In this document: piece by piece, positions 1 to 40,339 of the stretch
Layout: every line of letters begins with the position of its first letter
Position numbering within the stretch: the stretch's first letter is position 1
Source of the DNA: Marsupella aquatica
Taxonomy: Eukaryota > Plantae > Marchantiophyta
Reading direction: 5' to 3'
Length of the DNA: 64,000 nucleotides
NCBI GenBank assembly: GCA_973895155.1
Contig: OZ316891.1
Span: forward strand, 28,215,145 to 28,279,144
Notes under the pieces: model-generated
Databases searched by the model: none
What the model was told of the DNA's origin: nothing
Seen by the model: only the letters and a program-made list of their open reading frames with translations
Program-made: the position numbers and the translations under genes

Positions 1-962
1 ATCATATGCGGGACCAGCAAGCAAGTGGGGCAAAAGTGGCTCTAGTGATCATTAATCTCCAAATTACTTGAAACTGGAAATCTTGCCAAGTGAGTGCGCC
101 TGACTACAACTTTTCATGGACCTGGAAATCTTGCCAACTGGAAATCTTGCCAAGTGAGTGGGCCTGACTACAACTTTTCATGGACCTAAAGGACAGTGCT
201 CTACAGGGTTTCACTGTCCCTACAAGTTTTTGCACCTTTGTGTCCGATCTCGTACTGGTAGGTATAGGGGAAACGTCACCTTGTATCCCTACTTCTTCAA
301 GGAGCAAATAATCTGGCATAATTGGAGTAGTTCTCAAAACTGAAACCAAGGGATGGAAATCAAATTCCATGACTTCTAGAAAACAGATACACCTTTAAAG
401 CCACTGCAGTTCTCAAATTGAAGCGAAGGAAGGGCCGGGCGGGGGGGGGGGGAGGGGGTCAAATATACTGAAGGCCTTCTAATTTCTTGGCATTGGATGG
501 GGAGTCAAACAGCCAAAGGCTCTCTCTTCTATTCCCTGACAAAAGAGGCTCGACCTTCACAATCCATTCAGATCTTCATTCAGCCATTCATCTACACCAA
601 GACAAGTAACATACACAATACTAGAGCAAGCAAACAGGCTAGCTTGCTCACTCACCGCGGACAGCGCGTCGCAGAGCTCGTCGTCATCGTCACAATCCGT
701 GGTCGGGAGAGGCTCTCCAAAACGAGAACGCCGGTTGGATCTCTTGATCTTCGCACTGGACTGCTGGGACGACGCTACCACCACACCCACCGGTGCAGCG
801 GCAGCCGCTGCTGTCGACGACGATATCACCCCTACTGCTGCTGCTGCTGCTGTTGTTGTTCTTGCTGCTCGTCCAACTCCGCCGACCGATTTCACCGAGA
901 AGTATTTCGCCTGAGCCACCACCACGAACTGCGGCTCATAGCTGCTGCTGCTGCTGCTGGGC

Positions 963-1295
963 CTGCTTCTGTTGGCAATTAATGCAGGACTGTTTCCTTG
1001 CCTTCCCACCACAGCAGCGGCCATCGCTCCCGTCTCACCGAGCTGCGAGGCATTCCATGAATGGGTAGAGAGGAAGAAAGAAAGAATCGAGCAATGAGAG
1101 GCGACTCAGATCGCGACGCGATGTTGGCTGCTTCTGTTGGTAATTAATGCAGGACCATTCCATTGCCTTCCCACCACCGCAGCGGCCATCGCTCCCGTCT
1201 CATCGAGCTGCGAGGAATTCCATCATTCCATGAATTGGCAGAGAGGAAGAAAGTGTCGAGCTACCAGAGGCGATTGAGATCGCGACGAGATGTTC
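963..1295. repeat. Imperfect tandem duplication (~165-bp unit, 2 copies)
   Basis: gcttctgttgg(c/t)aattaatgcagga...ccttcccaccac.gcagcggccatcgctcccgtctca...agagaggaagaaag...agatcgcgacg occurs twice, at ~963 and ~1130. Confidence 0.75.
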
Positions 1296-3350
1296 ATTTT
1301 CGCGATGTGGGGAAGCAAAATGCTCGGGCTGTTTCCTATATGGCGACAGAATCGTGAAAGGAACGCCAAATTCTGGATTCTCTCGCTGATTTCGCGATCA
1401 CAATTTTTCATTATTCTATTGGTGCTTTCGTGATAACAATTTTTAATTTTTTTAAAATGAAAATCATCGAAACCCCACGAAAAGGGAAGAGTTTGTCATA
1501 ACATTTGAACACTAGATATATGAGTTTCAACACAAGTGAACTACTACACATACATGTCTCTCTGGTAAGCCATAACAATTTGTAACCTGGCCCGGGGACC
1601 AAAGAGGTATGGTCAGAACTATTGCAAATGCACTCTCTTTAATATTCTTGTATATTTTGGAGAATCATATGCAAAGAAAAAAATTTTGGAGGCATTTTCG
1701 GGCCCCAACCACAAAGCTGAACTGAAAAAGATGTTCAAATTGATGAAAGTAAAGTCTAGATGGACCTAGGGGTGTGCTTTGAGCGAAGCCCCCATAGATT
1801 TCCAAAGCTGGAATGGAGTGACTCAAAACATCAAAATCTGTTAGGATAGCATTTTTTTAATAATTTTGATTCATATGTGACCTAAAATTAGTTCGTGGAC
1901 CCCTGGCTACATTTTTTAGGCCTTGTTTGAGCTTGCGTTTTGAGAGGCTAATATGGTCCATACAAGGGTCCATAATGCTCTGCTAGCACACATTAAAACA
2001 CTTAAGATCTATGAGATATTTTCACTAATTTTAGAATATTAATTAATAAACCCAAGGCACAATTTTGTTTACGTTAGTTGATTTGGGCATTGGATGACAC
2101 TATATTTGACCACTAAATTGCCCTAGGTACTCAATTTGAGTTGAGAAGACTACTTTCTCCAGATCAATTGAGAAATCTACTTTCCGAGGTTAATAGTCTC
2201 ATGACCTTGACGCAACTATTCACCAAATGAAGAAGGGCAGCCCTTAATAAGCTTTCAAAAGAGAGAAGTATGATTAAGAAGAGAAGCTGGTAGTCATGTT
2301 GTGTTGGACAAATAGTTTAGCTAGATTTTAAAGCTTGTATTGTTTAGATTAGATTAGATTTTTCACGAAATCAATTGTGGACCCATTCAGCCATGCCTAA
2401 GCAGTTGACATTTTTTCAACTGTCACATGAAAACTTTGCTTTGTAGGCCAAAGTTGACACCATGGTTATCACAAGTAGTTGTCAAAATCAGGCTTTTTCG
2501 CTACATGCAACCAAATTCTCAAGCTACGAGAGTCAATAGTCAATCCGTGGCAAGTCCATTTGAAACCAAATCAATGTCTGATCAAATGAATTGAATAAAT
2601 TCACTGAGTTCAAGTTTTGACCATAGCTTGCAGTTTGCCTAAATTGCAAAAGGCTGGAAATCTTACTCCATATGCCAATTACCCTTTAACAAGGAAGTTA
2701 TCAAGTTAGTTATTAGTCATGTTTATTATTTGAAAAATACTTTTGAAATCTTTGAATTTAATTTTTAAAATTGGATACGTAACTAAAACAGTTACATAGT
2801 GACAGTTTTACCCGTCTTGCTTTTTGCATTTCTAAATTTTTACATTTCTTTTTATGGCATGGCGTCCCAAAATTTACACCCAAATTGACGCAAACACGAA
2901 TGAAAACTGTAAGTTGATTCATAAACTGATGAGTCTTGTTTGTTGCGGTTGGTTGTTGACGTGGCACACTCTAGTGCCAGGAATTTTGGAAGGGACCTCT
3001 CATGGGGTCAGTAAATAGGCTTCCATTAATATGAGTGGCGGCAAGTAGTGGCTCATGCAAACTACTCAGGGAGTCCTTCACAAAAATGAAAGGTCCTTTA
3101 TTAAAGTGGTAAGTTTGTGCTTGTGGCCAAGTTCTGAGGGCCTACTTCATAAAAGTGGAGCTCTCAAACTCCAAACCAGGAGACATGGTCCCAATGGCAA
3201 AGCAACCACATAAAGGGGGTGAAGGAAGGGGAAGAGCCCCCCAGAAGACCAAAGAGGTCAAACAAGTCAAGAAGCACCCCACAAAAGCAAAGGAACAAAG
3301 AGAAAAATAAGGAGCACACTAAGAAACTGAGAAGTCTAACACCCTAGTAG

Positions 3351-3726
3351 TGTCATGCCAAGGGACAGTGCCTCTTATGCACATCGGCATGTCCCTCGCC
3401 TGCCCGCTAGGTATGTAGTTAGGGCTCGTGTACTACCTGAGTTAGCGACATGTTCTTGTAGCAAGTCTGGGCCGTTCTTGAAGCAAATGTGCTTGTTAGT
3501 GTGACGCCAGGACTTTGCTTGCTTAGGGCATGTCTTTCTTTGTGGGTTTTCAGTTCTTCTTGAATCGTTGTTGACAGAGCTCAGACAGTGCTCGTCAGTT
3601 CCGTACACGGGATTCACACAGTGATTCGTTAGATGCTCCCGGCCGATCTTGGCATCCCGCTGGTTTTTGATTCGATTTCAGTACGATTGTTTCTCTTACG
3701 CCTTTTATTCAAGAAGAACTGCCGAG
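3351..3726 (+). other. Conserved structured 5' terminal region of the retroelement
   Basis: Nearly identical to 34270-34646, while the downstream leader diverges. A perfect 15-bp inverted repeat (3551-3565 / 3707-3721) encloses several small hairpins, and there is a terminal hairpin (a/g)agggacagtgcc...ggcatgtccctc. Confidence 0.7.
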
Positions 3727-5063
3727 ATAGTGGTGAGGGGAAGAAGATTGCTCGTGACGATTTCAACAATTTCTGGTGAAGCCATTGCAATTTCTTCGAC
3801 GGACATCAGAGTGATGAGTTAAAAGTTATGGGTTTATTGTGGTGTTATGTGTATACTTAAGTGTATACACATAACACTCCCTTGGGGGGCCCGGGTTTTT
3901 CGTTTCCGGCCACAATCTTCTTTGACCTGCTAATCCCGCTTCCGACTGTCACTGCCGATCTGCTGCCGCGGATTGCTTCCGGCTACTGCGCCCTCGCTTT
4001 GAATTAATGTGTTTGGTCCCTTTCCTCCCGTTTTCTTTCTTCCGGTCGACCGCCGCCTGGTTCCTCTCTTTCCCCCGTCGTTGCTCCTCGGCTGCTCGGC
4101 ACCCTGCATAGGGTCGCGCGCCACTTTTCTTGTTACGTCGAGTACAAAGCGACAGTCGAGAGGGAGGGGGCACATTAAGGAGGGGAGGGGAGTTAAGTCG
4201 ACTCCCTTCTCGGGAGTACATACGACTCCCTCCTTGGGAGTTTCTGCCAGAGGGCACGAAGCCCCAATTGCTTTTAGAGGGGAGGGGGAAGCGAAAGGAG
4301 GGCACGAAGCCCACTTCACCAACATTAAAGAAGGGGGAGGGGGGAGTTGAAGCAAAAGGAGGGCACGAGGCCCTATGAGTAATTAAGAGAGGGGGAGTAC
4401 ATTCGACTCCCTCCTCTCGGGAGTCACAGTCCTGCCAGGCACGAGCACAAGGGCACGAGGCCCTATGAAGCAATAAAGAGTGGGGAAGGAGGAGTACATT
4501 CGAACTCCCTCACACGGGAGCCCTTTTGCTAGGCGCGAGGCCCTATGCAGGGCTCGAGCTATTAACTCTTGGGGGTCCCATTTCTCTTTTTCCCTTCTCC
4601 TACCTTCATCGTTTTTCTTTCCATACGCACGCCGTTGCATTCTTCATCTTTTGGCCGGATTTTTCCTTTTGCCTCGCTGTGTTTGTTGTGTATAGGGTCG
4701 CGTGCCTATACACATTCGGGCTTCGGCCGGTCCGCCTTAAACCAGATGTGTATACACTTAGGGGCGGGCCCGTTTTGCACCATATTTCTTTCCCGGGGTC
4801 TGGTCGCTACATAGGGATGCGAGCACGGTTTGTGTATACACCTAGGGCTTGTGCATACACATAGGGGACCCCATTTTGCCGTTTTCTCTTGTTTTCTTCT
4901 GCTTCATTTATTTTGACCCTTTTAGGCAAGGCCGGTATACACATCGGGGCCAATTTCATTCTGTTTAACCCCGGCCTCCTTGCCTCACGCTGTTGCTCCA
5001 TTTGTGGGTTAATTTTCTAGCCTTGGGGCTGCCATTCCTTTTTCTTGTCAATTTCTTTCCTAT

Positions 5064-5079
5064 TGGCACCCCGAGTGAG
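5064..5079 (+). promoter_or_regulatory. Putative primer-binding site (tRNA-Arg-like)
   Basis: TGGCACCCCGAGTGAG begins 24 nt before the gag ATG; copy B has TGGCACCCCGGGTTAG (36175). Homology between the copies resumes exactly here. TGG is the complement of the tRNA CCA end. tRNA identity is from memory and unverified. Confidence 0.55.
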
Positions 5080-8000
5080 CATGCAGCATGTCAGCCGACG
5101 AGCCGGGAGGTAGCAGCTCACTGCCACCAACACCCCGGTACCACTTACGGAGTGATCCACGACCGTTGGTGCCAATTTCATTGGAGTCTCGGCAATTCCG
5201 ACGACGTCAGCAGACAACAGCACCAACACCCACACCACGCCATCCTTCTGCTACATTTGGCCATCGCTTCACCACTACTCCAAAGCCTGCTATCACTTCA
5301 TTGCCATTTACCCCTTCTGCATCAGTGGTTGTTCCTGCTTCACCGACATACAACATGGATGCCAGCCACTCATCTGGCCGCATTGAGTGCTTCAGCGGGC
5401 GGCCACACACTGTCTCTTTATGTGAGTTCAAATCCACTTTTTACACTGTCGTTTATGAATTGGAGTTGAAGTATGGCAGCAATTTCACAAATGCTTTTGC
5501 ATTTAAGCAGCTAGCCAGGTATGTGCACCATGAGGCTTTAGATGTGTATGAGCAGCACTCTCAATGGCTGCTTGCTGTCACACAGTTGCCTAACCCTACC
5601 TATGCCAGTGCAATTGCGGCAGCCTCACAATTGGCCTTACAGAATGCCATTGCAGCCCATGCTGCTGCTCCTGCCACTTCCCCTCCTACTCCAGTTCCTA
5701 CCACTACGCCAGTTACTCCCACTGTCTTGGCACAAGCTACATCAGGCATTTCTCCCACCATTGATTCTCCTGCCTTTGCTGATCCAGTGGCTGAGTTTTT
5801 CCAGGTTCTTGAATTGGAATTCCCAATCAAGAGTGCTGACAAAATCATGCAGTTGGCGACCTTTGTGAGGCAGCGCGATGAAACCTTGAAGATGATGTAT
5901 TGTCGGCTTCTCAAGCTGAAGGAGGACACCTAGAGCATCACTGACCTGGAAGCTGCTCATCGCTATCTTCGCGCATTGGAGGGCACACCAGCTCTCCATT
6001 CGCAAGTGTTGCAGCAAGTATTCTCAGAGTTTGGAGACAGCTACACCCTGCTCAATGTCTATGACACTGCTGAGAAACTTGAGTTGGCCCATGCACATTA
6101 TGAGGTGTACGTCCACCGCGATCCAGGTACCAGGCCGCTGCCCCTACACTGGCCACCCCTTCCCGTGTGCCACAGTATGGTTCCAAGACCAAGCCAGCCC
6201 ATGCTGCTTTCATGCTGCCATCTTGCAACTACTGTGGTAACCCCAATCACAAGGCTAATGAGTGTGATATTGTTGCTGAGGACCTGTCTTGTGATTTTTG
6301 CGGGAAAGTGGGTCACTTGGAGGCAGTTTGTTTTGCCAAATTCCCAGAGAGGAAACAACTACGACAGCAGGCCCCTCATCCTGCTCCTGCTTCCACTCCC
6401 CCACTAGCTAGGAGGGCTCCTATTGCATCCACTACTCCTCCTCCCAGTGGCAAAGCACCCGGTGCTAACAAATTGCCCAAGCAGCCACAGAAGCAACCAG
6501 CTCAGAAGGAGGCTCACAACGCACAGGCCACTCAACTCCAGTCTCTGACTCATGAGGTTGAGTCCTTACGTGCCCAACTTGCCAACATCAAAGGCAAGTC
6601 CACTGCCTCTGCTGGTCCTTCTCAACCGGCTGGTCACGTGCAGCCCATCCCGGGCCCAGGCACCGTTGACAGTTCAGCACCTCTATCCCGCTCTTTCTAT
6701 GGCTTGCCATTTGATGCTCATATGGGTGAGTGTGTGCTGTCCTCTGCTCCCCAGCCTGGCCTTACAGCAGAATTTTCAGATTCATTCTGCCCTTCCTATT
6801 TTGATTACCAGCAGGCCAATGCTGCCTCCCGTATTGCTCCCACACGCCGCATTGTACAGGCTGATGGTCTTGTTGCCGGTCCTATGACTAGAGCCAGGGG
6901 AGCTCGGGCTATCATGCCCCAATCTTTTCAGCCACTCACACTTGCTGAAGAGCGCACCTTGTTGGCGAGGGGGGAGGGAGCTGCAGCTACATCCATTCCA
7001 CCACCAGGTGCTGCTGACATTTCACAGGGAGTTGTTTCTCCTGAGCTGCTTGAGCATTTCACCTCCGGTATGGCACAAAGGATTCTTACAACTCCACTTT
7101 TCAGTTGCCATGATTTACAGCTGGATGCTAGAGCTGTCATCAGAGCGCTAGAGGGCTCACTGCATTCTTCATCAGCCCCTGTGACACCGGTTTTGGAGGT
7201 CCAATCTCATGTACATACTGGATCTTCTTCTTCTCCATTACATGCTTCCACTGGTTTGGCTATCCCAGTACCAATTTCTAGTGGTAGAGATGATAGTATT
7301 GCTGCAGATTGTGTGACCAGAGCTACACTGGATTCTGATCATGCTGCTCCATATTTCCTGACTATGCTGTTGAGTGGAAAGACCATGGACACTAACTCCC
7401 TTCACAAGGTACCTCATCATTTGCCAAAAGTGGTGCCTAGCGACAGGACTTCAGTTTCCACCACCATTGCCATTGTTGACAACAGGAATTCAGCGGTCAA
7501 GTTGGAGGGTCACACTCCTCAGGTGGTCATGCTGGACACAGGCGCTCAACCAGTGATATTGGGCATTCAGTTTGCCAAGAAGATGGGACTGCTGACTGAT
7601 CATTTACAACAATCCAGGTGGCACATTTGGACTGCTAGTGGCACTGTGGAGGATGTGCTGGGTGAGAGTTCTACTTTACTCACTCTCACTTTTAATGGAG
7701 GTACAGATCAGGAATTGCATTTCCCAGTCAGATGTTTGGTTACCAATGCCACTACGTATGATGTGCTCATTGGCCAGGAGGCTTTGTTCCCACCAGGTTT
7801 TACCATTGACAATTGGCATGAGCATGCATACTACAGAGTTGATTGGCATACGGATGGCTCACACTTGGGCTACATTCCACTTGATTTGCATGGTGCCCAT
7901 ACACCTATGGCTCACCACTGTGTGTTGCAAGCAGTGCACACAGCTACCTATGTCAACCACCCATTGCAGGATTGGATTGAGGAGGATGATGATGAGGTGG

Positions 8001-8196
8001 CTACTGCACATGCTGCTGCACGTATAGCAGCACTTTCCAGCAACGTGGATCATCAACCAGAGGTGGTACAACGGCTCCAAGCAGCCCATGGACCTTTGGT
8101 GGCTGCATTGCGCAAATTTGAGGATCTTGGGCAGCACAATGGCCAACCAATAGCCCCAATCTTGAGCGCACCAATTACATGGACTCCTGCTCCGGA

Positions 8197-8493
8197 CTCG
8201 GGGGTTTCACTTCCACAAAAATGGCATATCACGTGCGACGAAGGATAGGGTCATTTTATTGGTTGTAAGGGAAGACTTAAGAATTTTTGTAGAAGAACAA
8301 TAGGGTCTTTTAAATTCAATTTTGAGACTTATAAGAACATTAGGGCCTTTTTAGTCCATTTTTTGGAATATTCCAAGAATATTCCAACTTTATAGGGGTT
8401 AAAAAATAATAATTTTTTCTTACATTTTAGGGGGTCCGAGGCCTAAAAACGTCGCAGGTGATGGGTAGGTCCCCATATAGTGAGACCCCTGAG
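8197..8493. mobile_element. MITE (297 bp, 8-bp TSD, hAT-like) inserted at the PR/DNMT boundary
   Basis: TIR ctcgggggtttcact / agtgagacccctgag. TSD GCTCCGGA at 8189-8196 and 8494-8501. Absent from copy B (empty site ~39315). Confidence 0.9.
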
Positions 8494-8501
8494 GCTCCGG
8501 A

Positions 8502-9480
8502 TGGCCTTACATTGCTTGAGCTTTTTGGTGGCATTTCTGCAGGCCTGGAAGCTCTCCTACAGTCTGGCATGGTGGTGAAGTAGTACATCTATGTGGATAT
8601 TGATCCAGGTGCAAGGCAAGTGGCTGAATCCCGTCTGCTAGAATTTTCGGAGCGATTTCCTCAACAGTTTCCACACAGTGCATGGAAGTCTGCATTTTCT
8701 TTCTTTCCTCCAGATATCCAGCTTGTCCAACACCGGCACTTAACCCTTCTTGGCTCCCTTGATTTGATCATAGCTGGTTGGGAATGCCAAGGGTTTTTAG
8801 TTGCTGGTCACGGTGCTGGACTGCATGATTCTCATTCTGGCCTTTTCACAGCATTGGTTCAGATTCTCACCTGGGCTCAATCCCTTTATCCTACTGTTGG
8901 TTATATCATTGAGAATACTCCATCTCAGTTTGACCAGCGTCCACAGGTCAAAGAGGATTTCAGTGTGGTCCAGCACTACTTGGGACCACCCCTTCTCATT
9001 GATGCAGTGCACTGTGGTTCTTATGCACATCGTCTTCGTAACTTCTGGACTAACCTTGCTCCACCTTCCTTGTTGGAGTTAGCTCTTCACCACACATCCA
9101 GGGACACTAACCTCACAATGGACCAGATTTTGGATCCTGACAGTTCTTGCCAACTGGTTACACGGCAAGAGCCAGCACCTTGGTATCCAGCTAATACCAT
9201 TGGACAGCGCCATGCTACTTGGCCTACATTTGTGTCCTTTCCAGGTGCACATGCTTTTCAGGGTGATGGTCCTGGTCTGGTTTATCGACATTCTACCGGT
9301 ACATGGGATGAACCTAGTCCTGAGGAGAGAGAATGGGCTATGGGCTTCCAACCCGGTACTACAAGTCACACCAAAATCACCAGGCTGGCCAGGAATGCTT
9401 TACTTGGCAGGGTAATGGATCTTAATGCTCTCACTTGGCTTCTGGTCACTTGCATCCTTTTTCAGATGTACATTCATCCA
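8502..9480 (+). pseudogene. C5 cytosine DNA methyltransferase domain (DNMT3-like) within the polyprotein
   Basis: Motifs appear in order: I LLELFGGISAG, II YVDID, IV DLIIAGWECQGF (catalytic Cys kept, PC changed to EC), VI YIIENT, VIII AHRLRNFWTNL (DNMT3 has AHRARYFWGNL), IX EREWAMGFQPGTT, X RNALLGRVM. Confidence 0.9.
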
Positions 9481-12400
9481 GCATCAGGAGTTCCAGCCCT
9501 ACCCCCGGCCCTACCACTCCATGGTGCTGCTACATGGCATCTAGACCAGGTGCACTTACCTCTGTCCAACACTCACCACTTCAGTCCAAGTGTTGGGGGG
9601 GAGGCGGTCCCTTGTAATGTGGCTGACATTATTTCTGAGTTTCATGGTGTGGATCAGACCAGAGCAATAGATACAGCAGGCCTTGGAGAGGCCTCATCAC
9701 CTTATCAGCAGCATGCTAGCAGCTTGGATAGTGGAGAGGCTGGCACTTCTGGCTCTTCAAGCACGAGTACATCAGGTCCTATTCCTAGTGTTGCCAACTA
9801 CACATTCATCATGGGCAACCACCTGAGTAAAAGATAGAAGGACCAGCTGCTGAATTTGCTCCTCAAGCATGAGAATGTGTTTGCTTTCTCTATGAAGGAC
9901 TTGGGTAAGTGCAAGACTATGCAGTTCTCCATTGAGTTGGCTGATGAAACACCTATCTTTAGGCGGAGACACCGTTTGAGTAAGCATGAGTGGCAGCTGG
10001 TGGATGAGAGATGCCAAGAGCTCTATGAAGCTGGTCTTATTCAGCCCTCTACATCAGATTTTGCAGCAGCTACAGTGATGCCAGCAAAGAAGGATTCCAG
10101 TGGATTGTGGACAGAGAAGCGCATGTGTGGGGACTACAGGCCATTGAACCTGGTCACACCCCAGGACAGGTACCCCATGCCACGGCTAGAGGAGCTATTT
10201 GACAGCATTGGAGACTCAAACATCTTCACTCTTGTGGATCTAAGGCAAGGCTTTAACCAGATTTTGCTGCTTGCAAAGGACCGCAAGAAAACAGCTTTCC
10301 ATGGTAGTAACCAACTATGGGAGTGGTTGGTGATGCCATTTGGCTTGAAGAATGCGCCCATATTCTTTCAAAGAGTCATGGACCAGGTTCTTCAAGGTGC
10401 TGAGTTTCTGAAATGCTACATTGATGATGTGTTGGTCCACAACAAAGGATTTGACCAGCATCTACTTGACCTTGAGGAGCTATTCATGAGGCTTAAGAAG
10501 GTGAACCTAAAGATACACCCCAAGAAGTGTGAATTTGCTGTCAGATCAGTAGTATACCTTGGGCACCGCATTCTTCCAAATGGAACCATGGCTCACTGGG
10601 CCAAGGTGGTATCCATCTTGGAAATGCCCACTCCAACTGATGTTCACACTCTTAGGAGCTTTATTGGGTTGTGCAATTACTACCGGATCTACATCAAAGA
10701 TTTTAGTACCATTGCACATCCATTGTACTCTTTGTTGAAAAAGAATGTGACTTGGACATGGAGTACAGATGCTGAGGCAGCATTTGCCACTTTGAAGGAG
10801 AAGCTCTCAGAATACCCGGTGCTGAGAAGACCTGATTTCATCAAGGTCTTTGTGCTACACACAGATTGGAGTGCCCTTGGGATTGGTGCCATTCTGGGCC
10901 AGCATGATGAGGAAGGTAAAGAGTACGTCATTGCCTATGCATCCAGGAGCAACAATCAGGCAGAGAGTCATTATTCTTCTTATGAGGGTGAATGCCTTGC
11001 TGTTGTGTGGGCTGTCATACATTACAGGCCCTACCTCTATGGGACCAGGTTTACTCTCTACACCGACCACCAGCCCTTGAAGTGGTTGATGACTAACGAT
11101 AAGCTTACTGGCAAGCTTGCTTGTTGGGCACTCATCCTCCAGGAGTATGACTTTGAGGTAATTCATAGGCCTGGTTTGACACATCAGAATGCTGACACTA
11201 TGTCCCGTAGCCCTTTGATTACCTCTGATGATTCCTCAGATGCACGGCAAGATTTTGACCAGGTTTCCATCCTGCCTACATTTCATGCATCGACCTATCT
11301 TGCTTTGTTGCCATGCTATGTTGTTGACCAACCTGTGGTGGACATATGGGAGGACAGCGACACTCTGAGATTTCTGCAACATGGGGAGTACCCCACACAT
11401 GTTACTACTGCCCAGAGAGACCAAATTCAGCAAAGGTCCAAGCGCTACTTGTGGAAGGGAGATCATCTCGTGCGCTGCTTGCCAGACAAGGAAGTGGTGG
11501 TTCCACCCATTCATGAGAGGGTTGGCCTTATTCGTAAGGTACATTCTGAGCTTGGTCATTTTGGCGTTAAGAGGACTTACAGCCTCTTGGTCCCTCATTA
11601 TCATTGGAGAGGCATGCATGGCCAGGTTCGAGATGTTATTGCCCGGTGTGAGAAGTGTGATAGGGTAAGGACTTCTTTCACGTCTCGGCAACCCACACTT
11701 CACCCACTCCCTATTCAGGGCATGTTTTATCGTTGGTCATGTGATTTGGCTGGAGAATTACCCCTCACATCTCGGGGTAATCTCTACATCATGATCATGA
11801 TAGAGCATTTCTCCAAGTGGATAGAACTTGTGGCATTGCCGGATAAGACCTCCCGTAGCACCAGCCAGACATTCCTACAACAAGTTCTCAGCCGCTTTGG
11901 AGCTTGTGCAGAATGTCTCACTGACCAGGGCTCAGAGTTTAGAGGAGAGTTCCAGGAGCTGCTTGATCAGGCCCTCATTGATCATCGCCGGACATCACGA
12001 GATCACCCATAGGCAGATGGCTTGACAGAGCGCATGGTTCAGACATGCAAGAAGGGCCTCCGGAAGATCTGCCTCACCAAAAACAAGGAGGATTGGGACC
12101 TGGCCTTACCCTACATTGCCATGGGGTATAGGATGTCCAGACATGCATCACTGTCTAACTTTTCTCCCTATTTCTTGTTGTTTGGTCGTCACCCAGTTCC
12201 ACCTTCTGCTATTGCTGCTCACATGCTTCAGGTGGTGGACTTGGATTCAGCTGTGACTTGGTCTGATGTGATCTCTGAGAGGGCTGCCCTATTCAGGAGG
12301 GTTATGCCCATGGCCATGGAGAATTTGGCCATTGCACAGCACAGGGACACACTGCGTTATGCACACACACGAGGGGGCACTTTTCAGCCCAAGGTCAGGA

Positions 12401-12636
12401 AGTTTGATGTGGGAGATTTTGTGTACTTGCAGCGGCAAGCTAACGACACCCTGGACACCTCTACCAGTCGTACTATTCTCAGGGTTAAAGCTATTCGACC
12501 GTCTGGAGTGCTAGAGTTACAAGGGGCAGATGGGCGCACAATTGCTGACAATGCCAAGAATTGCGCCCCTTGTCATCTGCCTAACCTAGATCCCACCATT
12601 GTGACTTCTACTTGGATTCCACCTGTGGACTATCCT

Positions 12637-12773
12637 TGCAAGGTGTGTTTGCGAATTGATGATGCTGACCAAATGCTGCTGTGTGACCATTGCAATGGAG
12701 GGTACCATCTTTTCTGCCTTCGGCCTGAACTTATCCAGGTGCCAGAAGGGTTATGGTTTTGCCCTTCTTGTGC
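12637..12773 (+). other. PHD finger at the integrase C-terminus
   Basis: CKVC...MLLCDHCNGGYHLFCL...VPEGLWFCPSC matches the C4HC3 pattern with the conserved W. Confidence 0.92.
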
Positions 12774-12821
12774 TCCACGTGCTACCTGAATTTTCTTCAG
12801 CCCTCCTTTTGGCTGTGGTCT

Positions 12822-12830
12822 GGGGGGGGA
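12822..12830 (+). promoter_or_regulatory. Putative polypurine tract
   Basis: G8A lies about 32 nt after the polyprotein stop and is conserved in copy B (62084-62092). It is followed by TACAG and only 175 bp of unique sequence, not a TG-starting LTR. Confidence 0.65.
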
Positions 12831-15800
12831 TACAGAGGTTTACACCTCCACTACGTACATACCACTTCATTTGCTTTTTCTTGGCACTTGTGAATGTGAT
12901 TGGACTTTTTCTATGCATGTTGGTTGCTAGCAGCTTGCACATATGCCTTGCCGGTGACTTGTATGTTTTCGATACACTATGGCTACGATACTATATGTCA
13001 CGAAAGTAGGCATAAATAAAAAAGCCTAGTAAAGCTTTGGAGTTAACTGCATGGGAGTGGCACAAAGTGGAATCTACTTAGAGCCCCTAAAACCAGCTCC
13101 CTCTGCCTTACTAAAGAGGGTGAAAGTATGGGCCCTCTGTAATGCAACTGACACCCTCTATCTAAAGAAGGTGGTGAGCCCTATGTCTAAAGAAGGCGAT
13201 GAGGTGAGCCCTATGTCTAAAGAAGGCGATGAGGACAGATACAGGTGGAAAGGTCTCGGCTCAATTAAAAAACTGCTCAAATAGCAAAGGTTATCCCATA
13301 CTAGCATGCTCTTACCAATAAAGGCAAGTCCATACACACTTGTCCATAAGTGCATGTGTACATTAATCCACGCTTTGCACTTACAAAGTTTTCTATAGGG
13401 AGAGTCAGACACTTCCCTTATTACGCTTTTACTGTCAGTGTTTCTCCGTCGCCACAACTTGACTTTATATTGTGGACTTCAGTCTGTCAAGAATCGAGAG
13501 TTAGCTGGTGCTCGAGTCTGCTATTCTCATCAGTGTTTAGATCCTAGATTCTTATACTTAGCTCATCAGAATGTCATACTCGCCAATAAAGCTTTTGAGA
13601 ATTTACCTGACAAATATGAATGGGCAACTTCTTCCTTTCAGCCTGGCTTGAATCCCTTCGTGGTAGTTTGAGTTTGGGATCAATCAGCATTCCTGGCAAA
13701 TATTTTGTCCGGTACACATGCCTGGGCCGAACAAGCACAAACACCTGTCTAAGTTAGTCGTGTCTGGGTGAGCTGACTTACACTTAGTCACTTACAACAC
13801 CTGTTGTTAACATGAAGTACTGTAGATCCTCTAGGTCGCTTCCATAGAGATAAATAAAACCAAGGTACACAAATTTGTCTCGGTAGTGGGTCTATTTGAT
13901 CAATTTGTCACTGTCTCCTTTTCCCTGCAATGTAAATCGATCTGGTCTTTCTTTGAAGAAAGACTGAGGAATTATTCGAGACTTCTTAGCAAGGTTACTA
14001 AATTCTTGCATCTGAAGCTGAAAGATAGAACTACTATGGAACTGAACTACCCCATTTCATTTATATGATCTTGATCTCATTCACATAAGCTCGAGGAGAC
14101 GGGGGTACGTCATTCTCTGTGACGCGCGATAAGAAATGAAAGTGCATTTTGCTGGATTATTTGCAAGCTGGCAGAAAATAGTGCACGACTGTGCTTGATG
14201 ACATTCGTGATTATCAATCCGCCGTTTCCTTGGTTTAGCAGCAGCTGATGCTAGAACTGTATTCGGGACACTCAGGCATGTTCATAGGTTGTTGGTTTTC
14301 TTCAAAATAATCGCAACCTTTGGATTGAGATTTGGCACTTATGGAGTGCGCACCTAAAGAGAGACAACTGTATCGTTACTCACACTTTGTCAATGCTTGA
14401 GACTCTCAAACGTCTCTCACCACTGAAATACCAAGATTCAATTCTTTCGATTGAAATAAAGCATAAAGAACATGATCAAGAACATGTACACAATTTTATC
14501 TGAACCAAACTTGTCGTCTACTTCACCTTTTCTTAATCACAGGCATTTCAAAACTCAAAAAGCAACGACAGCTCTGCCACAACGACAGCTCTGCCACAAC
14601 GACAGATGAAGGTGGTTCAGCTGAATACTCACAGATAGAACAGTCGCACTCTTGATCTTGGTAGAGAATTTCGAAATGAAATGCGACCATGATACGTACA
14701 GAATACCTTGTGAAGTATTTGTTCACTTAGTAATGGCTATCCAGAGTAGCGACTTGATTTTCGCCCTCCGCGCGAGACGAACTAGAGAACAACCTCATAA
14801 ACCAGTCCTAGATGTAAAGAACTTTTCCCGCATATGATTGTCACAATGAAATTCGCTAGAGAGAAGGACTTTGTGAATGTTTCAAACAGGGCCAAAGTCG
14901 CAGTTGGACGTCGTTCGGAGCATGGAGAATCCATTGCAACAGTGTCAATTGCCCACAGACTGTGCTCCAATCTAGCTAGAAGCATAGATAGTTGCATTTG
15001 GTCCCGCATGTCATCAAGAGTTGGCTCGCATGAGAGAATCCATTGTGGCAATCAAGGGCGAGAAAGCTTCTCTATACCATATTTATTCCTCGACCGCGCC
15101 CTCCTTGGCAGATCACTGAGCAGACGCTGAGTGTAATGTTAGGTAGAAAAATGTGGACAATCGCTAGATGATGAGGAAGACGAATCCGAAATGAATTAAA
15201 CCTCATGAGGCAAGAAATCGTTACTACACGTGCAACCATTGCCTCCACATGCATAGTTATGCTCCACAATCCATAAGTCGATCTCCTTGCACGAAATGCG
15301 CGTGAAGATTTCTAATCATGAGCAATGTCGACATCATTCTGATCACTTTTTGATGCGAGGATCGAGGAGTGGCCATGCCATGCAGATGTGCTGTTTCTGG
15401 AGGCACAATAATTAAACGTGTGCTCTTTGTTAATTAAGACAGTTCAAAATTCTATCAGTCCGTCCAATTCACTCAGTCGCCTCAGAAATGCGCACTGCAG
15501 GACCATCATGCAATCATTCGCTACTAGGCAAGAGAGCCCGCAAGAGAGTGCTCGGTCGAGGCTAGAGGGCAGGTGAGCAAATCAGATCAAGACAACAACA
15601 TGCTTTGCTTCGATTTGCTAGTGACTAGACAAAGCTCAAACCACTGTGTAGGGAGATTGGAAGTGTTGGTCTTTACTCCTTCGTCCGGAAAACAATTGCT
15701 CATGCAGGCCATGTGGCAAGCACGGATCGTCATGCTGCCCCTCGAGACAGTGAGAAAGGGAGTAATGTGCTCACGGACTCAGATTGTGTCAACACTGTGA

Positions 15801-19898: not shown

Positions 19899-22800
19899 TC
19901 AATCGGAGATCTTATGCTGTTGTTGTTGCAAGCCTGATTGGTATACTTGCAGCTCTTCACGAAAGGTTTCGTTGTCAATACACAGATGGTTTATTGCAGT
20001 CCAGCAAAGCTGACAGAGATTTCATGCTTGGTCAGGAGCAAATTCAGGGACAACACTCGTAGTGACCTTTAGCAACAACAGTGCAGACTCGAGCCAGCTG
20101 AATTGAACACTTCTGTAACGGATGGCTATAATATTTAACATCACGTTTTTGCGTGGAGAACATTGTGAGATACATCAAGTTTCTATCTCAAATCAAATCC
20201 TAAAGAGACTTTCATTAACTCATACAATGTGATACCGGTCACTACCTCAATCTCCATGCTTTGCTCGCTTGATTGCTTTTGAATCTTCTCCAATGATTGC
20301 TGCATGTTGTTCAGATAAAGATGTCATTAGTTAAGTCGATGCCATCACAGAGCAGTAGATTCGACCCTGAGCTGAATTCGAACCAAAGAATTAGATGACC
20401 TCTTCTCGAGTTGTCACCCTGCTACAACTTGAGTCACTTGTTAAGGAAGGACGCCCAGATGGTTCCCTAGCTTAAAAAGGTTCCTGACCTTTCCCACGAC
20501 CGCTCAGCCACGAGGGGTTAAATTCCTTGTTTTTTTGTAACGAGAGGAGCTTTGGCATATATATATAATAAAACACCTGAACGAAAACTACGTAACCACC
20601 AGAGTACCCTCGTTACAAAATAAAACACCGAAAGTATTTTAGTGAAGTGCTGGATTATCTCAGATAAGTCCTCTGTTTAGATGTGGACGTAATCCTTGCC
20701 ATAACCGCTTGCAATTAAGGGGGGAAAAAAAGATAAGAATCGCCATACTCGAGGACTGAACTTTGACAGTGGTATGTGAATCATTCGAGTCATCTACCCT
20801 TTTTTAAGTCTAGGTGCTATTCAGATCTGTCGTGAACCTTGTTATGAACCTTCTCTCTTTACCAACATGCAACCCTCGCCCTCTTCCTCCCTCCCGCCCT
20901 GAACATTAACGAATACCCACCCAGTAAGACAATTGAAGAGGCCAAGAATGAGGGATGAGGACTAAGAACTTGTTGATTACTCACACCCATTTGCTGGCTG
21001 TCGCTTTGCAAAGTACAGAGCTGGTCCTGGATATGCTGCATGCTCCTTGACAATGCCTCACAGGCCTGCATACACTGCTCAGCAACAATAGGTCGTCTCG
21101 ATTCTCCAAGATTTTTCTCCGAAGCAGTGCTGCTGATGTCCCTGCTGGCGTTCAGGCTTCCAGTGCGAATATTACTGCTTGAGCAGCTCACCTTACTCAC
21201 CTTCCTCTCTTTCTTAAGTAAATGATAATTTCCTTCCATGAAGTAGGGCGATAGGGCCTCCTGTCGTTGTCGCCTAAGTGACTTTATGGCAAGATCCGTT
21301 CTGCGAGGGTAATTCCTTGTCAGGACCACATGCAGCATCAAAAATGTACAGAAATACTCAATGTTACAAGTCATTGTCGATACAAACAATTGACGAGCAC
21401 AACGATATTTCCTTACGAGTGACAAACACTACACTACAAATGTTGGACGAACTCTTAAATGTTTGTAATAATTGTGAGAATCGACAGTTCTGATCGAAGA
21501 GATGCCAAGGTCATGCCCTCCGCAACACTCAAAGCATTTCTTCAATGAAACCCAATCCCATGACAATATTTTGGGTAAAGATTCCGTTGAGGCTGTATGC
21601 ATGTCGCCACAAGCAGGAATAACTGCAGGCTGAGAACCGGTTTCAATAAGGTAATGAAACTCAAATCAAAGCCTCATTCTAGTGCCTCACTTATCCAGGC
21701 GTTGGTTGATGGAAGCAGCATGACGCCTGAATTGCTTTTGCACCATTGCAGCCACTTTCTTTCCTGCTGGCCGCTGGACCCACAATCTGCCTCTAGCAAG
21801 AAAACCCTGCACATGAGTTATGTGCAAATAATGGTTGTAACATTTGAGACTGCGAGTACTCGTCATTGCTAAGCGACCCATTTCAGGACTATTGGACTCT
21901 GTCGGCGATCGAGCTTGCAGGCCTTTTCGATATTCAAGGAGATGAATTAGTATTCAAGCCAAGAACTGAACGAAGCATGGGACCTTTCCTGTAACTCTCT
22001 TTCAAACGGCTAGAACGTTTTACTCATCAGCACAATTAAGCTTCTTGTTCTGAGCAGAGGGAGTTTTATTGAGGTGCATACTACTTTAGCATGGTGGTTT
22101 TTATTCAGGAACTTGTGTGTGGATCGGGTTCACCGTCATCTTTCTCACTACCATCTCCATGTCATTTTACTAAGTGACTTTCATGTTCAGCATACAGTTC
22201 AGAGACACATGTGTGTCCAGGAGCCCTTACTTTCATCTTGGTCTGTTTTGATCTATCTCGCTTTGCTAAGCGACGCTCCAAGCCAATGATGTTCCTCATC
22301 ATCTCCTCCAGAATGTTTGCACTTGCTGCAGAACCATCGGTGGCATTCGGATGTGCTGGTTGGGGTGCTGGATCTTCTTTGTCTTGTGGGTGCTCTTGTA
22401 AATTTCTCATAGAATTCGGCTCAGGAGTATGTGAGATATTAGCCTTTGTCTTAGTCACCACCCTCTCAACTCTCCTTTCACCAGGCCATCGATCATCTAT
22501 GATTCCTGTCAGCTTTTCCATCTGAGCCCTGAATTCCATTCTCGAAATCGATTTATTGATATGCGTGATGCCGTCAGGAATCTGTGATCCTCCAAGGGTT
22601 CCAGAGCTCTGATCTGCATTACTCAGCAGCTGCTCGCTAGACATATCTTGTACCATATCTGGCTCTGGCCACTGCTGACTCTTCTTTGAGATGGGTTCCG
22701 TTATCTCCTTCTTTGCAGTAATTGTAAACCTCTTGGACATGGAATAATTATCCAGATTTCGCAAGATTTCATCCAGGTTTCGTATTTTCTGGGAAATACA

Positions 22801-23307
22801 AGCAGATGCGGCAGGCCGCGCGGAGGCATTCTGATGATGATTCTTGTTGTGTTTTAGATCAAGCGTGGTAGTACTGCCTAACCCACATCTCTGCAAAATT
22901 CCCTGCAAGGTGGAGGAGCCTGATGTGGGCGGAGAAGGGAGAGCCGGAGGAGAACAGTCTGTTCCTCCTATGGCGCCAGGGCTACAGTAAGCAATCTTAT
23001 TAGGAGAGAAGTACGGAGCAGTGGACGATCGAATCCTCTCATGTGCAGTAGCAGCGCCCCATGTTGCGGCAGCAGTGCTCGCGGAGAAAAGCTCAGACGT
23101 GAGGTCAATACCGACACCTGCTTTGGATGAGTTGAAATGGGGGAATGGGAACTTTGGGAAGGCATTGGAGGCCGATGATGCTGATCCTCCTTGGGAGAAG
23201 TCATGCAATTTCTCTAAAGAAAACAAGGGATCTGTGTTCATTTGAAGGAGGGTAGGTGAGGGGAATGAGGACGCAGATGCATAGGGTGCACTAGGTTGCA
23301 AATCCAT
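19899..23307 (-). CDS. Multi-exon host gene of unknown function (Ser/Pro-rich N-terminus, coiled-coil C-terminus)
   Basis: 381-aa ORF at 22162-23307, plus downstream coding-like segments (~21690-21795, ~20990-21310, ~20245-20305, ~19899-20010) with heptad-like Q/E/L content and plausible splice sites. The exon model is approximate. Confidence 0.55.
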
Positions 23308-25374
23308 GGTGGTTGCCTGCTGAATTGCAGTATCAGAACAGATCCTCTTCCCTGATATCTCCTCTCAAGAGCAAACTCAATATACAGGGATTCTGTTACG
23401 TTTCCCTGTCGACCGAAAGAAGGTTCATAAACTACATAACAAGTTGAGAGAGGTAGATTGGACCAGTTTGAAATTGGATTTCACTTCAAAGAGACAACTA
23501 ATTTGAATTGACTGAATTTTGACCCCTGGGGCAGAGTGAAGTACAGTGGAGGCAAGTAGCCACATGGGAACTCTAACCGTCGGAAAAGACAAGGAGAACC
23601 ATTCCTAGAAGCAACAACTACACTCCTCCGTTGAACGTTGAGGGCAGACAAATGAGATAGACAATTCGAGCATTTCCAGTGTCCAGCTTTCAGAGCTCCC
23701 CAAGATTCACTTCTGGGTTTCATTAACAGCGTTGTGTTGAGAGAAATCAATCACTCTGCCCGTCTTGAGTTGCGCCTTGCCAATCGATCTTGCCTTAAAA
23801 ACACTCGCTCTTGCCTTCGTAAACGCCTGGCTCGCCAAGCCCTCCAGACGAAAGAGCCAACTAGCGCAGCGAGACCCACAGCTACCCAAAGGCGAACACT
23901 CCCAATCACCAGAAGTGCTTCAAGCTTTTTCCTGACCTTTGATATTCTTGAAGGTGGTGCTCGCTTCAATTGCCAAAACATCGAAAATTTGCATTAGAGT
24001 TTGGGAGTTTCTTCCGTCCTCGACCAGATGCTCGAATTTTCCAGCCGTCAGCTATCTAACTCTCCTCAAAATCCAACCAGTGTATTGTGTTTTACCTCGG
24101 ATTTCTTCACCTAGCGGGCTACGTGGCAGAAGAGACTACACAATACTGAGAATTGCATCAACAATGCATTGCAAACACCCGTCCGCCGAACCAGAGGCCT
24201 CCAGAAAAACCGAGGAGTTCACAAGGAGTTGCTGTGCATTGAATTTTCAAATCGCTTTGTAGGATAACGAGGAGAATTGGCACCCAAAACTCTGAGAGAT
24301 TTACAGAAAAACGAAGGCGTGACGCTTCTAAGGCACATGAAATATTTGCTAGGATGCGACCGGGGCAATAATGCATGGGGAATGGCTGACAATGTCTCAA
24401 ACTACAAGAGACAGAAGAAAAATGACAAGAAGAATGATTCAGCAACAGAGAAACTTGGCTTATACGTCAGCAACGGACGGTAAGGAAGGTAGGTCATGGA
24501 TCCATTAGCATAGGGAACTAATCTGAACCAGAAGTGGGAGATATCAGAGCCCACACAATCTAAGATCCATATTGGCTGCAGTAATGCAAATCCTCGAGTA
24601 TTCAAGTCGAGTGACCAAACCTAACCTGCAATTTAGTCAAGAGTGCAACATCCCTTCAGAGATTTCAGCAGAAACTAGACAATTCCTGAAACAACATTGC
24701 AGGGAAAAGTCGGCATGGAGCAATTTGCCGATGACAAGTGACACAAGTGCTCAGTCATGCAAGCACTAGGAGCAATGGAATGCCAACAGGAAACAAATCG
24801 ACAACGCCAAAGATGAGGGAATAAGTGCATCAACTCAAAAATGATCCGCAATCTCGGAACAGAAAGAGAAGCAAAATCAAACCATATTGAAACAAAGATC
24901 ATGCAATTATGACAGAGAGCTGAAGAACATCTCATGTCAATGAGCAATATGAAAGGTGAAACAAATTCAGGGCAAATGCAGCAATGTCAGAAAACAGTGC
25001 TAGTCGGAACTCAATCTAGACTTCTCTGTTGATTAACAAAAAAGGTGCACGAATGCCCCTCTCAGAAAGCTCATTTGCAATTCAGAAAGAAACCTTGATG
25101 CAGAGGGCTACTAAGGCCATCAATTGAATGGCATTTCACTGCCTTCCCGTCCTTCATTCGTGAACTCATCATCCCTGAATTGCAGGAGGAGTGCTCAACT
25201 GACAGTATACGGAGCACGAGTGACTGAGAACAAACCGTTGTTGAACTACGTACCCTACATAGGAACTGTGTAAACCTCAACACGGTAGCAGGCGACTATG
25301 GTAAACTATAGGATCCCAGTGATTGGTTTCCGTGCAGTCCCCTCCCCCTTCCCTCTCCATTAAACTACAACTTA

Positions 25375-27044: not shown

Positions 27045-27812
27045 AGCACAATAGTTTTCCCAAGAAAGCTCTAACTGATCTCTCTAACTGTGCAGTAGGC
27101 TTTCTCAGACACTAGCTGGGCCATCGATGGTGGTAAACGATCCCTCTAAACCATACAATAGTTTTCCCAAGCAGGAACAGGGGCCAACTGTACTGTTGAC
27201 GGTGGTCCCAATCTCTCTAAACTGTAGAGTAGTTTTCCAAAGAATGGGCTCTAACTGCGCTGTTGACGGTGGTCCCGACCTCTCTAAACCATAGAGTAAT
27301 TGTCTCAAAGGAAGAATTATCTCGAATTGCACTGTCGACGGTGGTCCCAATCTCTCCAAACCATTGAGTATTTATTCCAAAGACGAACACAATCTAACTG
27401 CACCATTGCCGTTGGGACGTGGAAGAACTATCTCTAAAGGCACCGTTGACGGTGGTCCCGATCTCTCTAAACCATAGAGTAGTTTTCCCGAGAGCAAACA
27501 GGCTCTAACTGCACCATCAACAGTGGTCCCGATCTCTCTAAACCATAGAGTAGTTTTCCCGAGAAAGAACGGGCTCTAACTGCACCGTCGTCCACGGTGG
27601 TTCCGATCTCTCTAAACCATAGGGTAGTTTTCCCAAGCAAGAACGGAATCCAACTGCGCCGTAGACGGTGGTTCCGATCTCTATAAACCATAGAGTAGTT
27701 TTCCCAAGAAAGAACGGGATCTAACTGCGCCGTAGACGGTGACACCGATCTCTCTAAAGCGTGCAGTAGTTTTGACAAGGGAGAAGAGGCACTAACTGCG
27801 CCGTCGACGGTG
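27045..27812. repeat. Tandem minisatellite, ~71-bp unit, ~10-11 copies, just upstream of the membrane-protein gene
   Basis: Unit gatctctctaaaccatagagtagttttcccaagaaagaacgggctctaactgcaccgtcgacggtggtccc; starts at ~27461, 27532, 27606, 27677 and 27748. Confidence 0.9.
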
Positions 27813-28067
27813 ATACTGAAATCGTGCGTCGGACGCGAACTCCCGAAACTCGCGTCGGCCGTCTCTTTTGCTCTCTCTCTGTCATTTTTCGTTCCTCCTT
27901 TTCTTCGATTCCCACTCGAGAAAAAACAGAGCTCGAAGTCTCAAACCTTCGCATCAGCGTTTCTTCGAGACAAACGCAGAGGGATCGTTAATTACGAGAA
28001 GAGGAAAAGCTTCGCGTCGACGAATTGAAGGTGGAGGTAGAGGTGACGGAGCAGGAGCAGGAAAAGT

Positions 28068-31000: not shown

Positions 31001-31399
31001 AGGCTAATGATCATGGATCGCGACATTAGGTTGTTTCCTACGCAGTTTTTTAACTTTTGGCTGCAGAATTTGTCCGCATCAAAATTCATGGTTTCAAACC
31101 ACCTCATCCCGCTTCTGAACACCAGGTTGTGCTCTTGTCAGGGTGGTTTGCAGACAATTCTGAGCGAGGCAGGCGGCGCAAAGCATAAAGGGTCTGTGGG
31201 AACGTGGAATTGGAGACTTGATGAACCTGCACCAGAGAAGCGCAAAGCAGGGCACACGGGAGTAACAGTGGTTCTTGTATTCTTGTTGGCAGCGGCGCTT
31301 GTGGCGTTTGTCGTAGCTGCACGGATCCATCACAATCGGCAAAATCCATCACAGTATGTTGATCTCAACAGCATGGGCTATACTCCCCCAATATTGTAG
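28068..31399 (+). CDS. Cys-rich single-pass (type I) membrane protein, multi-exon
   Basis: Signal peptide MAKSKRSNPGAALLVALVVMACSSLVAVTRA. Cys-rich exons at ~29237-29517, ~30016-30298 and ~30529-30792. The last exon (~31142-31399) has TM VTVVLVFLLAAALVAFVVAA and tail QYVDLNSMGYTPPIL. Confidence 0.75.
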
Positions 31400-39500: not shown

Positions 39501-40339
39501 CATGGAAGTCTGCATTTTCTTTCTTCCCTCCAGATATCCAGCTTGTCCAGCACCGGCACTTAACCTTCTTGGCTCCCTTGATTTGATCATAGATCACTCT
39601 ATTCATTAAAACTGGAATTTCTAGAGTCCAAAAGTTGATGCTCAAAAGTATTATTTTGCTACCCAAAATTTCACAAAATTTGCCCCAAAAGTATATATTT
39701 GGTAGGCCAAATGTACACTTTTTGTGGTCTAAAATTACACTTCTTGTACCTAAATTATTAAATAACTAAATAGTAATTTATAATTAATTAATATTCATAT
39801 AATAGAAAGTTATATTATTATACTATATAGTATCATTATTATTATATAGTCTAAAAAAGCATATCAATGAATAGAATATAACAATCTATATACAATATAT
39901 TAAATTAAAATTATTGGAAATACATGAATGACTATATCAGTTTAGTCAATGGTCTCTACCCTAAGTAACACTAGTAAATATGGTAGTTTGACTGTCAAGG
40001 GTAGCAAGTGATGAATGGTCATTTGTCCTTATTAATTAAGGGTAGAGATTGCAACCACCCTAATCTCCTATCTATGTAAGAACTTATATTTATCATACTT
40101 AGATGGTCAAGATAGTCTAGACCCAAATGGAGGGTTTATCTTTGACTAAATATTACACTCATGACTCTCTTAGTTGGTAGAAATCATTTGAGCAAGCAAG
40201 TCCAGACCTTGAAAAATCAAATTTCATACCTCGGTTGCACACCACCTACGACACTATATTCCAGAACTTATAGGATAGGTACAACAATTATCATAATAAC
40301 TTGGCTCCACAAAAGACCTAAAGCAAAACCCCTTTGAAT

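Follow-up and report, generated by a model that had tools for sequence, protein, structure and literature searches.

A DNMT3-type methyltransferase domain and a putatively permuted LTR in a bryophyte Ty3/Gypsy retrotransposon family

Two inactivated copies of one retrotransposon

The window analyzed here, 64,000 nucleotides of contig OZ316891.1 from Marsupella aquatica, holds two copies of one retrotransposon family, copy A (3351–13005) and copy B (34270–62267), which are about 95% identical and both lie on the forward strand. Copy A is preceded by the 4-bp target site duplication (TSD) GTAG (3347–3350, repeated at 13006–13009) and opens with a 358-bp segment, Repeat A (3351–3708), which starts with an att-like TGTCATG and is 93% identical to 34270–34628 in copy B. 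Repeat A contains a putative RNA 5′ end and self-primer (3551–3565; the start site is presumed), complementary to a putative self-priming primer-binding site (PBS) directly at the end of A (3707–3721). A long 5′ leader with short repeats follows (3722–5350), which is poorly conserved between the copies and has low contig depth. The coding region begins with gag, zinc knuckles, and a linker (5352–7495; homologous to the related proteins P0123 and P0145, zf-CCHC E 0.007), and an aspartic protease (PR) with an LDTGA motif (7496–7810; PF13975, E 3.5e-6). The DNA methyltransferase (DNMT) domain (8500–9450) is followed by a reverse transcriptase (RT) with a YIDD motif and an RNase H (RH), both of Ty3/Gypsy type (9901–11199; PF00078 and PF17917, with Ty3 as the best solved relative), an integrase (INT) with H2C2 and DDE core (11500–12399; PF17921 and PF00665), and a C-terminal PHD finger at the end of the ORF (12610–12789; PF00628, E 1.5e-11). 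A G8 polypurine tract (PPT; 12822–12829) stands immediately 5′ of the 176-bp Repeat B (12830–13005), which is 98% identical to 62092–62265 and ends in CACGAAA in copy A and CACGACA in copy B.

The gag-PR-RT-RH-INT order and the Ty3-like RT identify the element, as judged from its sequence, as a Ty3/Gypsy retrotransposon, in which the DNMT domain sits between protease and RT (gag-PR-DNMT-RT-RH-INT-PHD). Both copies in the window are dead, and neither preserves the PR-DNMT fusion in frame. The PR-DNMT linker of copy A is interrupted by a 297-bp MITE (8197–8493; 8-bp TSD), which puts PR and DNMT into different frames; in the same copy, in-frame stops lie at 5931 in gag, which also has a frame break near 6100, at 8581 in the DNMT domain, at 9835 upstream of RT, and at 12010 in the integrase. 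Copy B, an A-coding-B element (TSD TGAA) broken by insertions and an inversion, retains the 5′ part of its DNMT domain (39321–39592) in the PR frame as far as motif I, and its 3′ part, from AGWECQ to motif X, resumes at 57653–58340 after an 18-kb transposon inserted just before AGWECQ; three frameshifts and two stops further disrupt this domain. The initial annotation, which placed the methyltransferase within the polyprotein frame of both copies, thus holds for copy B as far as motif I and fails for the rest of that domain and for copy A. An intact fusion is present in natural relatives, where P0145 (Calypogeia fissa, 77% identical) and P0140 encode gag-PR-DNMT-RT as one ORF, and contigs of the window's own family bridge the MITE site (8189 to 8495), giving empty-site joints.

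Several other elements accompany the two copies. The MITE, which we take to be hAT-like, has the deepest contig coverage of the stretch, indicating a very high copy number, and 25–61 loose-end contigs per run terminate at 8197. The DNA transposon in the copy B DNMT domain (39593–57652) has TIRs of about 25 bp and a 4-bp TSD (ATAG); nested inside it is a second element with related TIRs (43274–56563). ORFs at 52719–55465 resemble a transposase (DUF7869, E 4e-23), and large unassigned ORFs are located on the minus strand at 43729–50194. Further downstream in copy B, a 681-bp inversion (58388–59068) covers the DNMT-RT linker and the start of RT, and a 367-bp TG...CA solo LTR of an unrelated element (61474–61840; 5-bp TSD TGCCT) precedes the PHD finger. 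Tandem arrays with units of about 69, 108, 70, and 60 bp occupy 40348–41614, 42454–43168, 27140–27819, and 50262–50577, respectively. Open frames at 22162–23364 (minus), 557–1105 (minus), and 30872–31399 (plus), which might be host exons, have no Pfam match.

The methyltransferase domain

In copy A, the segment 8500–9450 encodes a complete DNMT3-type C5-cytosine methyltransferase domain, with the in-frame stop at 8581. As initially annotated, the motifs follow each other in order, and in copy A they share a single frame: motif I (ELFGGISAG, 8518), II (YVDID, 8590), IV (AGWECQ, 8773), VI (IENT, 8908), VIII (HRLRNFW, 9028), IX (ERE..MGF, 9325), and X (RNALLGRVM, 9391). Taken alone, this sequence matches the Pfam profile PF00145 weakly, with an E-value of 6.6e-4 and a score of 19.6 bits where the cut-off is 22, and the atlas clusters carry generic PF00145 only. 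A profile built from 17 family members matches DNMT3A at E 2.3e-21 (79 bits), compared with E 1e-11 to 1e-8 (38–47 bits) for DRM and E 1e-7 (33 bits) for HhaI. The AlphaFold model of the domain (pLDDT 91.7) adopts the DNMT3A/B fold; in Foldseek it retrieves DNMT3A at E 2e-16 and TM 0.74, and the matches listed are all DNMT3 (DNMT3A/B). Thus, the domain possesses the motif I, motif IV cysteine, motif VI Glu-Asn, motif VIII arginine, and motifs IX and X of C5-methyltransferases in order, together with their fold. It is a genuine DNMT3-like domain, as the initial annotation had proposed. The mammalian DNMT3A/B catalytic domain is its best match by sequence profile and fold, DNMT3 is the closest among solved methyltransferases, and the motif order is unpermuted, unlike that of DRM2. 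The two differ in that the element domain is only about 20% identical, carries GWECQ in place of GSPCN, has an insertion after motif II, and lacks PWWP and ADD.

The window domain has no Pro-Cys dipeptide in motif IV, with Glu-Cys in its place. The description of AGWECQ as unusual is apt for C5-methyltransferases in general and does not apply within the family, where Glu precedes the catalytic cysteine in 176 of 277 domains and Pro does so in 88. GWECQ, the commonest motif IV of the family, is on this comparison a family trait rather than a sign of decay. The prevalence of Glu at this position, together with the sub-threshold Pfam score of the single sequence, would also suit a catalytically weak or dead DNA- and SAM-binding module with a structural role. 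A point in the same direction comes from KnitGypsy-Dnmt3 of Klebsormidium nitens, a Gypsy element described as carrying a Dnmt3-type domain in its Pol ORF (de Mendoza et al, 2018; PMC5890265), whose enzyme produced no methylation in yeast; its authors call the result inconclusive, and human DNMT3B was likewise inactive in the same assay (PMC5890265). We regard such an inactive module as quite improbable, given that the cysteine, the motif VI Glu-Asn, the motif VIII Arg-x-Arg, and the motif I glycine are near-invariant among domains only 35–40% identical, and that Pro- and Glu-type versions are intermixed across the family. The catalytic cysteine is kept in 275 of 277 domains (the other two have gaps), the motif VI glutamate in 274, and the two motif VIII arginines in 269 and 268.

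Selection on the domain points the same way as in the other enzymes of the element. Between copies A and B, the DNMT dN/dS is 0.24 (17 nonsynonymous and 21 synonymous changes; Fisher p 2e-5), obtained from a nucleotide-level count that replaces an earlier value of 0.44 inflated by frameshifted stretches; the corresponding values are 0.23 for RT, 0.29 for PR, 0.11 for INT, and 0.41–0.71 for the linkers. Against Sphagnum-type loci the ratio is about 0.1, with dS near saturation. These ratios indicate that the domain is under purifying selection at a level like that of RT. For KnitGypsy-Dnmt3, a Ka/Ks below 0.2 has been reported (PMC5890265).

Range of the family and position of the domain

The family is abundant, with thousands of divergent contigs per run, and its named relatives come from four Sphagnum species, Calypogeia, Closterium, and five chlorophyte genera; no named Klebsormidium sequence is among the family matches. 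In FastTree phylogenies, the window domain is sister to that of Calypogeia fissa (support 0.99 and 0.98) within a bryophyte clade (1.0), which bears out the land-plant setting suspected at the outset and makes a liverwort host probable from the element alone. The DNMT domain lies between RH and INT in 209 proteins and after PR or before RT in 37. All of the latter except P0157 form one group that includes Closterium, with support of 0.97 under midpoint rooting and 0.76 with a phage root, which is itself a long branch. The chlorophyte relatives, from Haematococcus, Chromochloris, Hariotina, Monoraphidium, and Cymbomonas (P0188, P0242, P0159, P0241, P0249–P0251, and P0157), have the domain mostly between RH and INT-PHD where its neighbors are visible. 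P0157 carries it before RT despite falling inside the RH-DNMT-INT group, and its position appears to be an independent move. The simplest reading of this distribution would be that green plants acquired the domain once, early on, and that it later changed its place in the polyprotein.

Viral contigs (L041–L053) encode DNMT3-like C5-methyltransferases that score 76–79 bits against the family profile (63 for L052), as high as human DNMT3A; these matches are phage C5-methyltransferases only, with GSPCQ, GPPCQ, or GWPCQ. That phage enzymes score like DNMT3A bears on the origin of the domain. A bacterial MAG record (L063) contains an algal-type RT-RH-DNMT-INT-PHD retrotransposon, probably as a binning contaminant; this locus and L037, also of chlorophyte type, are cut off before the element termini.

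Split repeats and a possible route through circular cDNA

Neither copy A nor copy B has a direct repeat between its 5′ and 3′ ends, so that the direct LTRs expected of Ty3/Gypsy are missing. Both copies are of the form A-coding-B, start with TGTCATG, and are flanked by exact 4-bp TSDs (GTAG and TGAA). Their termini are TGT...ACA in copy B, with one terminal mismatch in copy A, in keeping with the TG...CA ends and 4–5-bp TSDs of LTR elements. The term LTR-less, used in the initial annotation, is therefore literally correct for these two copies; it does not describe the family, whose split repeats, A-coding-B-A-B, we interpret as an LTR in permuted form. In contigs from the family of the window copies, B is joined to A (13003 to 3351) and A to B (3703–3709 to 12830–12834). 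Both junction types are present in three of four runs (X1, X2, and X3) and are not among the joints listed for X5 (15 of 202). The 40 related loci represent 27 distinct insertions after duplicates were merged, and B is visible in 17 of them: eleven go on as B-nn-A-B and six end after B, the remaining ten being cut off or disrupted there. Four elements are visible at both ends as A-coding-B-A-B with 4-bp TSDs (three exact, one with a single mismatch), and one locus (L013) is a solo A-B with a 4-bp TSD.

At all 13 distinct B|A junctions, a 2-nt spacer (GT, GC, AT, GA, TT, or TC) separates near-palindromic ends; five further pattern matches were set aside as flanks or chance. Both window copies have a perfect 15-nt complement (3551–3565 with 3707–3721 in copy A), which 0 of 1,000 shuffles reach. 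The self-primer complement is significant at seven of ten 5′ ends tested (it failed at L021, L033, and L039), and Sphagnum-type elements have a different, equally complementary pair about 30 nt downstream of a TATA-like box. A G-run precedes B1 and not B2 in the relatives. The element thus has a putative PBS, of the self-priming type, after its 5′ repeat and a PPT before its 3′ repeat. We rejected a tRNA-type PBS, TGGCACCCC, at 5064, the point from which copies A and B are homologous again, after a pattern search placed it before gag in 0 of 40 loci. The A|B joins coincide with the primer boundary, with lengths that vary by a few bases between elements and among the contigs of one family. Within four elements, the identity of A1 to A2 matches that of B1 to B2 (84/85, 87/87, 82/80, and 81/85%), which fits repeats made identical at insertion.

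Because A ends where U5 would end, at the primer site, and B starts where U3 would start, at the PPT, it is very probable that the true LTR is B-nn-A: the RNA would start in A and self-prime right after A, and the plus strand would start from the G-run before B, yielding a linear B-A-coding-B-A without terminal att sites. Repeat A would then comprise the distal U3 together with R/U5, Repeat B would be the proximal U3, and the A|B join would be a U5|U3 circle junction; the few-base variation of this join at the primer boundary is what end-joining is expected to leave. Self-priming Ty3/Gypsy elements such as Tf1, Sushi, and Tcn1 are described as sharing a PBS directly after the 5′ repeat that is complementary to the presumed RNA 5′ end (PMC4600332; PMC6317226). 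Those elements carry chromodomains and are bounded on either side by ordinary LTRs, in contrast to the split LTR, PHD finger, and DNMT domain found here; the main text of the REXdb survey contains neither "PHD" nor "methyltransferase" (PMC6317226).

The repeat layout is the same as in split-direct-repeat DIRS elements and in KnitGypsy-Dnmt3, and a DIRS-like replication is conceivable, in which the RNA would extend from A1 into B2, pairing of the split repeats would close a circle, the integrase would stand in for the tyrosine recombinase, and A|B would be inherited rather than formed anew. Such a route would account for the sole occurrence of A-coding-B-A-B, the reciprocal form being absent from all ten 5′ ends that are visible. 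We nevertheless hold it unlikely, since the primer site lies exactly at the end of A1 and the PPT exactly before B1, with neither at A2|B2, and since the A|B join differs in length between elements and among the contigs of a single family. Moreover, a Pfam scan of the element ORFs found no tyrosine recombinase; a DDE integrase and 4-bp TSDs are present instead, which speaks against membership in DIRS. SymbioDIRS-Dnmt3, a split-direct-repeat DIRS element, shares A-coding-B-A-B, a Dnmt3 in the Pol ORF, and a presumed circular intermediate with the window family (PMC5890265); its type uses a tyrosine recombinase, in contrast to the DDE integrase, protease, and 4-bp TSDs of the present elements.

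As for integration of the permuted LTR, DDE enzymes that open abutted ends in circular DNA are known from the copy-out-paste-in transposition of IS3 and IS911. We consider it probable that host end-joining or recombination converts the linear product into 2-LTR or 1-LTR circles, and that the integrase cuts the internal CA-nn-TG to give A-coding-B-A-B or A-coding-B. The att-like TG and CA ends would lie back to back inside the LTR, and, with the 2-nt spacer between them, one staggered cut would release two ends with 2-nt 5′ overhangs, resembling processed retroviral ends as described in PMC11054761. The same source recounts the circle-junction model of Panganiban and Temin (1984), in which a DDE enzyme likewise opens abutted ends in circular DNA; there the cut was placed at the U5|U3 junction, whereas the cut proposed here would fall within U3 and leave the U5|U3 join intact, to be passed on as A|B. 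According to that account, the model was abandoned for retroviruses in favor of linear DNA (PMC11054761), which counts against the present proposal. A 2-LTR circle opened at the junction would insert as A-coding-B-A-B, whose RNA is terminally redundant and could transpose again. Such a circle has two equal B|A junctions, and the reciprocal A-B-A-coding-B would therefore also be expected; its absence from the ten visible 5′ ends, against four complete A-coding-B-A-B elements, likewise counts against the model. One locus (L039, 705–731) has about 25 nt of B tail and a 2-nt spacer before A without a matching TSD and corresponds to neither predicted form.

The A-coding-B form of the window copies would be a dead end with three conceivable origins: opening of a 1-LTR circle, cutting at two junctions, or B x B recombination after insertion. 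A serious alternative to 1-LTR circles, to which we give somewhat less than an even chance, is that both copies integrated as A-coding-B-A-B and their A-B part was later deleted through B1 x B2 recombination, or that they derive from a linear cDNA cleaved at its two internal junctions; this alternative is compatible with the rest of the circle model. Recombination between B1 and B2 retains the TSD, and a solo A-B is known (L013), though recombination between A1 and A2 would give the same product. Against this alternative, a B of about 175 bp offers little length for frequent ectopic recombination, and yet the element stops after B at six of the 17 loci and in both window copies.

In line with the initial annotation, the methyltransferase would be released by the protease, packaged with RT, and directed to cDNA. 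Its position in the polyprotein would bring it into the particle with RT and INT, where a circle awaiting host end-joining would be an obvious substrate. We see an even chance that the enzyme, matured together with RT and INT, methylates the new cDNA in cis and that a long-lived nuclear circle arrives pre-methylated. The att junction contains CpGs, and the early strong-stop duplex would be split between the LTRs, so that the two junctions might be methylated on opposite strands; speculatively, this could let the integrase cut only the junction that gives a viable A-coding-B-A-B. The CpG observed/expected ratio of the coding region in the window is 0.27, against 0.61–0.66 in the flanks. Sphagnum-type copies show 0.29–0.33 and two algal-type copies 0.59–0.66, and in a single comparison (L020) the element has 0.32 against 0.50 in another retroelement. 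Host methylation alone can also produce such depletion.

Instead of free cDNA, the substrate of the DNMT domain might be the insertion site or the new copy, where it would work together with the integrase and PHD finger to silence the element or select targets. Most relatives in which its neighbors are visible have the domain between RH and INT-PHD (209 versus 37 proteins), and the best PDB relatives of the PHD finger are WSTF, CHD4, EHD3, KDM5, ATXR5, and BAZ2. Judged against their consensus, the finger lacks the cage tryptophan of H3K4me3 readers and is presumably similar to those that bind an H3 tail free of modification, a property shared by the ADD domain of DNMT3; it would thus steer integration or methylation to chromatin without H3K4me3. 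This role seems unlikely overall, as RT-RH separates the domain from INT in the streptophyte group and the flanking linkers there are weakly constrained, and we retain cDNA as the substrate in the proposed model.

Taken together, the end anatomy suggests an LTR element that primes its own reverse transcription and inserts from circles opened at an internal junction. The window contains two dead copies of a high-copy Ty3/Gypsy family with a DNMT3-type domain, and we slightly favor the reading that the LTR of this family is cut mid-way during integration from circular cDNA. The broader proposal, a green-plant-wide Ty3/Gypsy lineage in which the integrase att sites have moved to mid-LTR, integration from cDNA circles is obligate, and the element's own DNMT3 marks the cDNA, falls just short of an even chance.

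The window family is akin in kind to KnitGypsy-Dnmt3, likened here by the published description of the Klebsormidium element rather than by its sequence: both have a Dnmt3 in the Gypsy Pol ORF and DIRS-like A-coding-B-A-B repeats (PMC5890265). The present family differs in its occurrence in land plants (Calypogeia, Sphagnum, and the host of the window), Closterium, and chlorophytes (with another domain order), and in its very high copy number. For the present family we have located the PPT, the self-primer site, and the internal att junction, whereas the portions consulted of the KnitGypsy-Dnmt3 account give no mechanism for the repeats (PMC5890265). According to a 2019 paper, land plants such as tracheophytes lack transposons that encode methylases (PMC6338049), and, as far as their consulted text goes, two works of 2025–2026 cite only the 2018 streptophyte Gypsy-DNMT3 (PMC12344493; bioRxiv 10.64898/2026.05.21.726589). 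Our search, which mostly lay outside subscription papers and Repbase reports, found no literature on bryophyte, land-plant, or chlorophyte Gypsy-DNMT3 elements or on permuted-LTR circle integration.

Retrotransposon-borne DNMT3, so far described from one alga and dinoflagellates, is thereby extended to land plants and chlorophytes, and an abundant bryophyte family makes the role of the captured enzyme testable in plants. The end anatomy is a more surprising result than the methyltransferase, which belongs to a known kind. It would account for the puzzling presence of DIRS-like repeats in a Gypsy element, and it predicts integration from circles, against the linear-DNA rule for LTR elements. 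Such elements would escape LTR-finding pipelines, and bryophyte repeat annotation may consequently miss a major family.
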